Positions 16,658 through 17,559 are shown, counted from the first letter of the stretch. The stretch is DNA of 32,604 bases from Nanobdellota archaeon (GCA_038046345.1 JBBSWJ010000035.1:1-32604); one strand, 5' to 3'. Notes: a model not told the origin generated them from the sequence alone. A program made the numbers and translations.

Positions 16658-17149
16658 ATGGCAGAAATTGAAATGATTAAATCAATAAGTTTTGGATACT
16701 CTGGAGTGTTTAGTTTAAAAGATGTATATAACCTTGTGCACAAATGGTCCAAACTCCACCGTATTCCGGTATATGAAAAAGAACAAATAGAAAAAGAAAC
16801 ACAAGATAGCCAAGACACTTTAATTAATTTTGAAGGAAAAAGAGAAGAAGATGATTATTTCGCTACAAAATTCAAAGTAAAGGTGATATGCAAGGATCTA
16901 AAGACAACTAAAAGAAAAAACGAACTTGTATACAAAGGTAATGTAACAATAAATATTAAAGCAGTTTTAATCAAAGATTATGACGAAGTATGGTCTTCTA
17001 ACTTTTTTTCAAATTTTATTAGGTCAATATGGGACAAATATATACAAGACAACAAAATAAACCTTTACCACATACAAGGAACAGATGAGATATACGAATT
17101 AAAGGACGATTTAACCACCTTATTCAATATACAACACTACAAAAAATGA
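16658..17149 (+). CDS. Hypothetical protein, tandem paralogue 3 of 3
   Basis: 163 aa; GVFSLKDVY..W, DDYF and KGNV pattern; ATGA overlap with lspA. Confidence 0.8.
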   Translation: MAEIEMIKSISFGYSGVFSLKDVYNLVHKWSKLHRIPVYEKEQIEKETQDSQDTLINFEGKREEDDYFATKFKVKVICKDLKTTKRKNELVYKGNVTINIKAVLIKDYDEVWSSNFFSNFIRSIWDKYIQDNKINLYHIQGTDEIYELKDDLTTLFNIQHYKK

Positions 17150-17559
17150 AGTTATTTAGAGTTTTCTCAACAGCAGTAAGCGTAGTAGTAATTGACCAGA
17201 TAGTTAAGTTTTTAGTAAGATACTACAGGCCGGATTACCCGCTGATAACAATAACCAGCAATACCGGTGCAGCATTCGGTCTTTTTAAGAATAATTCTAA
17301 TTTATTGATGATCATTGGTATTGCAGCGTCAATAGTATTGATTATACTTGCATTTAAACTCCCAAAAAAAGAAAAACTAGCCCATTATAGCTTAGGGCTA
17401 TTTTTAGGCGGTGCAATTGGAAATGTAATTGACAGGCTATTATTTGGCGGGGTATTAGACTTTATTGATCTGCATTTCTGGCCAATATTTAATATAGCTG
17501 ACGCTGCAAATATGATCGGGGCAATAGGTTTGGTATACTATCTTCACAAGAAAAAGTGA
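17146..17559 (+). CDS. lspA: Lipoprotein signal peptidase (signal peptidase II)
   Basis: DQIVK, NTGAAFG, GGAIGNVIDR, VLDFI and FNIADA, including both catalytic Asp; hydrophobic segments. Confidence 0.93.
   Translation: MKLFRVFSTAVSVVVIDQIVKFLVRYYRPDYPLITITSNTGAAFGLFKNNSNLLMIIGIAASIVLIILAFKLPKKEKLAHYSLGLFLGGAIGNVIDRLLFGGVLDFIDLHFWPIFNIADAANMIGAIGLVYYLHKKK

Follow-up and report, generated by a model that had tools for sequence, protein, structure and literature searches.

The ORF at 17146–17559 raises the question of whether an archaeon can possess a bacterial-type lipoprotein signal peptidase (LspA) and, if so, what that enzyme would do there. A 2025 review describes LspA as 'found exclusively in bacteria' (PMC12067869), and papers from the Pohlschroder laboratory report that no archaeal homologues of LspA or of the prolipoprotein diacylglyceryl transferase Lgt have been identified (PMC12462473). 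The initial annotation of the window (the whole stretch of DNA that was analysed, 32,604 nucleotides in length, which is contig 35 of the host genome) had nevertheless called the ORF a bacterial-type LspA while remarking that well-studied archaea lack the enzyme, a remark that agrees with both sources. The reading we favor, with a probability of about 0.85, is that the protein has canonical LspA function downstream of Lgt. The ORF would then encode a working bacterial-type LspA that is inherited vertically in a large clade of Woesearchaeota-type DPANN archaea (Nanoarchaeota/Nanobdellota phylum). Behind this reading stand sequence homology, an intact active site and a matching fold, together with conservation across the lineage, joint occurrence with Lgt, exclusion of the DUF63 family and a conserved lipobox.

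The predicted protein matches Pfam family PF01252 (Peptidase_A8) at 106.2 bits, against a cut-off of 25, over profile positions 2–140 of 142, and it matches the NCBIfam equivalog model TIGR00077 (lspA) at 88.8 bits against a cut-off of 73.95. Among solved structures, the best sequence matches are to LspA from Pseudomonas aeruginosa (9emz/5dir, E ∼1e-14) and from Staphylococcus aureus (6ryo). The 9emz/5dir alignment pairs D105 and D119 with D124 and D143, the catalytic aspartates of the P. aeruginosa enzyme. Because the VLDFI motif (holding D105) and the FNIAD motif (holding D119) fall on the motifs around D124 and D143, the window protein has D105/D119 as its dyad, and both catalytic Asp motifs are kept as had been claimed. 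With both family models matched above their cut-offs, the active site intact and the fold also matched, sequence comparison confirms the ORF as a genuine member of the peptidase A8/LspA family, as first proposed.

To describe conservation within the archaea, the window protein was aligned with 30 homologues encoded elsewhere in its class. Sixteen columns are invariant in the 31 archaeal sequences (D17, K21, N39, G41, G89, N93, R97, V103, D105, F106, W112, P113, F115, N116, A118 and D119), and D96 is kept in at least 90% of them. A hand count on the P. aeruginosa alignment indicates that the invariant archaeal columns are positions conserved in bacterial LspA. Pairwise identity among the archaeal proteins is merely 29–47%, and this combination of low overall identity with invariant active-site columns fits selection acting on the active site.

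An AF2 model built on the 31-sequence alignment (pLDDT 94) contains four transmembrane helices (residues 2–27, 51–71, 77–100 and 117–136) and two short strands (residues 34–39 and 103–107). When this model was compared with the PDB using Foldseek, LspA chains alone were returned, with TM scores of 0.86 for 6ryp, 0.83 for 6ryo and 0.77–0.83 for 5dir; the next match had an E-value of 0.9. The archaeal proteins are short, at 135–160 aa versus a median of 169 aa in 76 named bacterial homologues. Compared with P. aeruginosa LspA, the window protein carries a 4-residue deletion at the periplasmic helix, which at full length gates the substrate and globomycin site. Here the helix is modeled as approximately one turn (residues 43–45) in the segment with the lowest pLDDT (79, residues 41–50). 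Since the protein is compact and its periplasmic helix is reduced, substrate handling may differ from that of the bacterial enzymes.

Judged from its genes, the host is archaeal and DPANN-like, with archaeal ribosomal and tRNA-modification genes flanking lspA. The genome is 821 kb (0.82 Mb) in size and 97% complete, with an estimated contamination of 0.03%. The ORF proved to be exactly as first described in position, strand and length, with an ATG start (Table 1). It had also been described as embedded among archaeal core genes, and family-model searches agree: in addition to ribosomal protein L11, matches nearby include uS2_euk_arch (254 bits), TYW1 (347 bits) and an archaeal GluRS (631 bits). 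The location upstream of rpl11 holds for this species, but the adjacency is species-specific and is not kept in other orders. A conserved lspA–rpl11 linkage was rejected, as the arrangement is present only in assemblies of the window's own species.

Table 1. Coordinates of lspA, its neighbors and its proposed pathway partners; positions refer to the window unless a contig is named.
Feature	Position	Strand	Description
First paralogue	15675..16151	+	158 aa
Second paralogue	16148..16633	+	161 aa (gene call in sister assembly)
Third paralogue	16658..17149	+	163-aa ORF directly upstream of lspA; no Pfam match
lspA	17146..17559	+	ATG start, 137 aa; peptidase family A8, lipoprotein signal peptidase II homologue
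rpl11	start 17647		archaeal L11 (NF002232, 198 bits); 88 nt downstream of lspA
lgt	31301..32083	-	prolipoprotein diacylglyceryl transferase homologue; PF01790, TIGR00544
Lit-family gene	contig 21: 28180-28677 (L117:1483-2100)	+	PF07314; HMM and one PDB alignment

Other genes of the window were recorded alongside this locus. A 510-aa ORF (14070–15602, minus strand), with no Pfam or NCBIfam match, lies divergent to the array of paralogues and lspA. Its homologue (E 4e-34) directly adjoins lspA at locus L088 of a named Woesearchaeota genome, where TYW1 is also nearby. Positions 4833–6530 (plus strand) encode a fusion of a PHP domain with a family X DNA polymerase (HHH_8, DNA_pol_B_thumb); the PolX type seen here is widespread among bacteria and is found in some archaea. 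The minus strand of 23684–27151 holds a three-gene cluster that by its domain matches looks like an exopolysaccharide synthesis module of a DPANN archaeon: one gene is DUF2334/polysaccharide-deacetylase-like, one encodes a GT2 glycosyltransferase (chitin-synthase-like match, 81.8 bits) and one a UDP-glucose/GDP-mannose dehydrogenase.

Immediately upstream of lspA is an array of three paralogues of ∼160 aa on the same strand. The end of the third and the start of lspA share 4 nt (ATGA), so the two genes are probably co-transcribed and translationally coupled. The array is found upstream of lspA in seven loci, which belong to two families of the order, one of them the window's own. The paralogues were rejected as a class-wide partner of lspA, since a profile search finds them beside it in two families alone. 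None of the three has a Pfam match, and their Atlas clusters contain archaeal members only. The model of the third paralogue (pLDDT 88) has an antiparallel sheet packed on a long C-terminal helix in a helix-grip/START-like arrangement. All of its Foldseek matches are START/Bet v1-like and weak (E 5e-4, TM <0.35), and a VIA fold comparison gives START-like, KA1 and TBP-like domains side by side at Z 8–9. The weak matches include lipid-binding folds (Ups1/Mdm35 at Z 8.5, SRPBCC cyclases and CoxG). A family assignment from fold was not possible with matches this weak and mixed. The models leave room for the idea that the three paralogues may be lipid-handling proteins, with an uncertain link to LspA function.

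Is the gene peculiar to this genome, and does it travel with the enzyme that would act before it? We searched the high-quality genomes of the same phylum, a sample of 301 in which all counts are inflated by kinship. Two of the genomes counted in the tallies of LspA, Lgt and DUF63, G283 and G284, are unpublished. Both are positive for LspA and Lgt; no conclusion rests on these two, and none of their sequences were used. PF01252 is present in 265 of the 301 genomes, some of these single-contig, and in 58 of the 61 genomes of the same order, where it spans 29 of 30 families.

In bacteria, Lgt acts before LspA. The lgt gene that had been reported on this contig is indeed there, on the minus strand, and its product matches PF01790 at 254.7 bits and TIGR00544 at 220.5 bits (cut-off 118.9). 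It aligns with E. coli Lgt (5azb) with an E-value of 3.7e-46 and keeps the conserved blocks Y-G-L, HGGL, GRxGNFxNGELxGR, RHPSQLYE and EFxRQPD. Lgt is found in 54/61 genomes of the order and 264/301 of the phylum. When the full sets of LspA-positive and Lgt-positive genomes were compared by hand, 254 of the 301 genomes had both enzymes, 11 had LspA where Lgt was not found and 10 had Lgt where LspA was not found. One enzyme alone is thus seen in 21/301 genomes. Neither was found in 26 genomes, as compared with ∼4 expected under independence, and these 26 concentrate in few families (f50, f45, f62, f71, f72, f89 and others).

Among archaeal enzymes that lipidate lipoproteins, AliA and AliB of Haloferax volcanii alone have been characterised (arCOG02177/02178; PMC12462473), and the annotation of AliA (HVO_2859) places it in the DUF63 family (PMC9426492). 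In the genome studied here, DUF63 (PF01889) has no match at E ≤ 0.01; the controls for this search, H. volcanii, M. jannaschii and M. acetivorans, were all detected. DUF63 is present in 9/301 genomes, drawn from nine families. All nine are among the 26 that lack LspA and Lgt, and the family was not found in any of the 275 sampled genomes positive for LspA, Lgt or both. As far as these related, sampled genomes go, the bacterial-type and archaeal-type systems exclude each other. The simplest reading is that Lgt/LspA took over from AliA in a common ancestor of the large Woesearchaeota-type clade. A further 17/301 high-quality genomes (e.g. in families f50 and f45; 0.5–0.9 Mb) are without LspA, Lgt and DUF63; such genomes either make no lipobox lipoproteins or use an unknown system.

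Candidate substrates were sought in the same genome using a simple gene call (950 ORFs covering 91% of the genome) followed by a lipoprotein signal-peptide pattern. The resulting census is small, with 12 lipobox ORFs by a loose pattern and 7 by a strict lipobox. Most of the candidates have textbook N-termini, as illustrated by MKRTLLVMAVLIMILTIAGC. Cysteine at +1 is modestly enriched, by ∼2- to 8-fold per residue frequency relative to other residues in the pattern. One 312-aa candidate has orthologues in 25/31 relatives. The signal peptide and lipobox Cys are kept in 13/13 of the orthologues that were fetched, where the signal peptide ends in [LVIFT]-[ATVFS]-[AG]-C and the surrounding N-terminal residues vary freely. 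A Pfam search of 10 lipobox candidates gave no function for 9 and one weak glycosyl-hydrolase match.

Three other explanations have to be weighed against a native, canonical LspA. Were the enzyme truly exclusive to bacteria, as the 2025 review holds (PMC12067869), a bacterial gene mis-binned or mis-joined into an archaeal contig would be an obvious account of the locus, and the nearest bacterial homologues (Dehalococcoidales and Omnitrophota, 43–45% identity) are indeed as close as many archaeal ones (35–47%). The gene is nonetheless tied to its surroundings: it overlaps an upstream ORF of an archaeal-only family, lies 88 nt from an archaeal rpl11 and has a GC content (0.355; lgt, 0.341) that matches the window (0.328). 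Its codon usage, at the 10th percentile of the genome's genes, is unremarkable though not typical. An identical LspA with the same neighbors is present in GCA_964359605.1 and in three Logan assemblies (ERR3858113, SRR32696677 and SRR32696679), such that the same arrangement has been assembled independently in four data sets. Taken with the low estimated contamination of the genome and the homologues in 265 related genomes, some in a single contig, this makes contamination or chimeric assembly vanishingly improbable, and the initial annotation was right to argue against it. A recent transfer, shallow in evolution and limited to the window's own species or family, would explain why the neighborhood of three paralogues, lspA and rpl11 is restricted to that family or species. 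It would not explain why LspA reaches 29 of the order's 30 families and most of those in the class, nor why archaeal LspA sequences diverge so strongly and yet cluster together. Among 5.8 billion clusters, the closest non-identical LspA is merely 41–46% identical, and identity to any bacterial sequence is at most ∼46%. A recent transfer is highly improbable on this evidence. LspA is a near-core gene of a large archaeal clade, and is neither contamination nor a recent transfer.

The remaining explanation accepts the gene as native but assigns it a diverged function, in which the archaeal LspA clade cleaves something besides Lgt-lipidated prolipoproteins: unlipidated or remnant signal peptides, for example, or proteins lipidated by another archaeal enzyme. 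The compact form and reduced periplasmic helix are consistent with such a change, as are the 11 genomes that have LspA and no detectable Lgt. In addition, an archaeal lipoprotein signal peptidase has yet to be identified, which leaves room for other roles (PMC12462473). However, the clade shows no variation at any of the residues whose conservation is known around the active site and substrate pocket of LspA, and Lgt co-occurs strongly with LspA, with 254 genomes having both and far more than the expected number having neither. The lipobox Cys is kept in the candidate substrates, and none of the LspA-positive genomes among the 301 gave a match to DUF63, the known archaeal lipidation family. 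We therefore consider a diverged function unlikely, and canonical cleavage downstream of Lgt remains the preferred reading.

How the clade came to have LspA was addressed with a tree that combined 35 archaeal sequences with 76 named bacterial ones and that replaced a tree with unnamed sequences that was uninformative on domain. All 35 archaeal sequences fall in one weakly supported region that also holds LspA from Bacillota, Omnitrophota, Planctomycetota and Poribacteria, and support is below 80% on 59 of 108 inner branches. Constraining the archaeal sequences to monophyly gave a likelihood better than that of the free search, and monophyly was not rejected (AU p 0.76). Because the tree is weakly resolved, a single origin is a tentative reading, and the naming of a donor lineage from among these four nearest groups was dropped. 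The sequences fit one old acquisition followed by vertical descent, in a protein too short for proof. On this account the clade would have gained LspA from bacteria in a single ancient event, with direction and timing as we infer them.

The genome also encodes a Lit-family protein, on a different contig from lspA and lgt (Table 1). It scores 77.6–78 bits against a cut-off of 24, covers profile positions 3–176 of 176 and aligns with Bacillus cereus Lit (7b0o; E 2.7e-10), including the IHxxDVK and FHxxLFxNDxW blocks. Lit is found in 91/121 sampled related genomes, and in four relatives (G150, G057, G149 and G025) it lies ∼0.1–3 kb from lgt. In the genome studied here, two genes immediately precede the Lit gene, a 125-aa ORF without a Pfam match and one of the DoxX family. 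The N-terminal domain of Lnt (LNT_N, PF20154) has no match in this genome.

The source of the lipid that Lgt would use is less obvious. In the 97%-complete genome, we found no match to the archaeal-type lipid-synthesis enzymes PcrB (GGGP synthase), UbiA-type DGGGP synthase or CarS, and none to CDP-alcohol phosphatidyltransferases (CDP-OH_P_transf), PlsC-type acyltransferases or PlsY. CTP_transf_1 gave a sub-threshold match alone (17 bits). Since lipid-synthesis genes of neither type are detectable, Lgt must draw on a scavenged donor lipid. The sequence is silent on whether a scavenged lipid would be archaeal (ether) or bacterial (ester). The chemistry of Lit is the transfer of an ester-bound acyl chain, and its presence weakly hints at ester lipids.

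These components suggest the following pathway. Secreted lipobox proteins would be exported, and Lgt would add a glyceryl-lipid, predicted to come from a phosphatidylglycerol-type donor, to the lipobox Cys. The D105/D119 dyad of LspA would then cut the signal peptide just before the lipidated Cys, an activity and an order of steps that we infer, and the Lit-family enzyme may remodel the product. The initial annotation's statement that LspA cleaves only diacylglyceryl-modified prolipoproteins carries over to this enzyme as an assumption. The donor lipid would be scavenged, and the bacterial-type pathway would stand in for archaeal AliA (DUF63) throughout the clade. Because Lit needs an ester acyl chain and the cells are without lipid synthesis, the lipoproteins may carry scavenged bacterial lipids. 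The fullest form of this proposal, in which the clade swapped AliA/DUF63 for Lgt–LspA–Lit and both its lipoproteins and part of its membranes carry bacterial-type diacylglycerol lipids scavenged from bacterial partners, is speculative and in our view rather doubtful. If true, it would mean that the lipid divide has been breached in nature and would point to bacterial hosts for the clade, and the three helix-grip paralogues coupled to lspA could be lipid-handling proteins.

Each checkable point of the initial annotation was borne out, but its scope was too narrow: this locus is not one odd copy. It represents a lineage-wide core gene that occurs with Lgt, usually with Lit, and without AliA. Taken by itself the gene is an ordinary, intact LspA family member, and it is the setting and the distribution that stand out. 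The locus and the lineage survey contradict the two 2025 papers that deny archaeal LspA or Lgt. In the open full-text literature (subscription journals lay outside the search), the only treatment of LspA or Lgt in DPANN archaea or Woesearchaeota that we found was in the Pohlschroder-lab papers, and a study of bacterial-type protein families in DPANN archaea (PMC8204110) makes no mention of Lsp or Lgt in its text or supplements. Database pipelines already label such archaeal proteins 'signal peptidase II'. Our claim is limited to the statement that no discussion of DPANN LspA/Lgt was found in the searched literature. Annotation would be affected because lipoprotein predictions in DPANN archaea would rest on a real processing pathway, and the finding bears on the idea that LspA inhibitors hit bacteria only. 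It also makes three questions accessible to direct tests: whether archaeal ether lipids can serve bacterial Lgt and LspA or ester lipids are used in these archaea instead, where host-dependent DPANN archaea obtain their lipids and how freely envelope-biogenesis machinery crosses between the two domains.

The system proposed here can be compared with three known ones. It would share with AliA and AliB of H. volcanii the same cellular purpose, the lipid-anchoring of archaeal lipobox proteins, but the families are unrelated at the level of sequence detection. We know of no signal peptidase partner for AliA. A closer parallel is the Firmicute-type Lgt–LspA–Lit pathway of Enterococcus faecalis and B. 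cereus (Lit, 7B0O), which yields lyso-form lipoproteins. As in that pathway, Lgt and LspA are joined in this genome by a Lit-family protein, and the N-terminal domain of Lnt gives no match; the archaeal LspA sequences also group loosely with those of Bacillota, Omnitrophota and Planctomycetota. The genome differs in that Lit is on a separate contig and that the ester lipids on which Lit acts are putative here. Finally, compared with bacterial LspA itself (S. aureus, 6RYO/6RYP; P. aeruginosa, 5DIR/6FMS/9EMZ), the window protein is shorter, with 4- and 5-residue deletions relative to the P. aeruginosa enzyme and a one-turn periplasmic helix, and its host is an archaeon without detectable lipid synthesis. 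In other respects the two are alike: family membership by curated HMM thresholds, the Asp dyad, the motifs D-x3-K in TM1, NTG, GGxxGNxxDR, VxDF and FNxAD, a four-helix fold with a small beta-cradle (TM 0.81–0.86) and a genomic setting that includes Lgt, Lit and lipobox-bearing candidate substrates.
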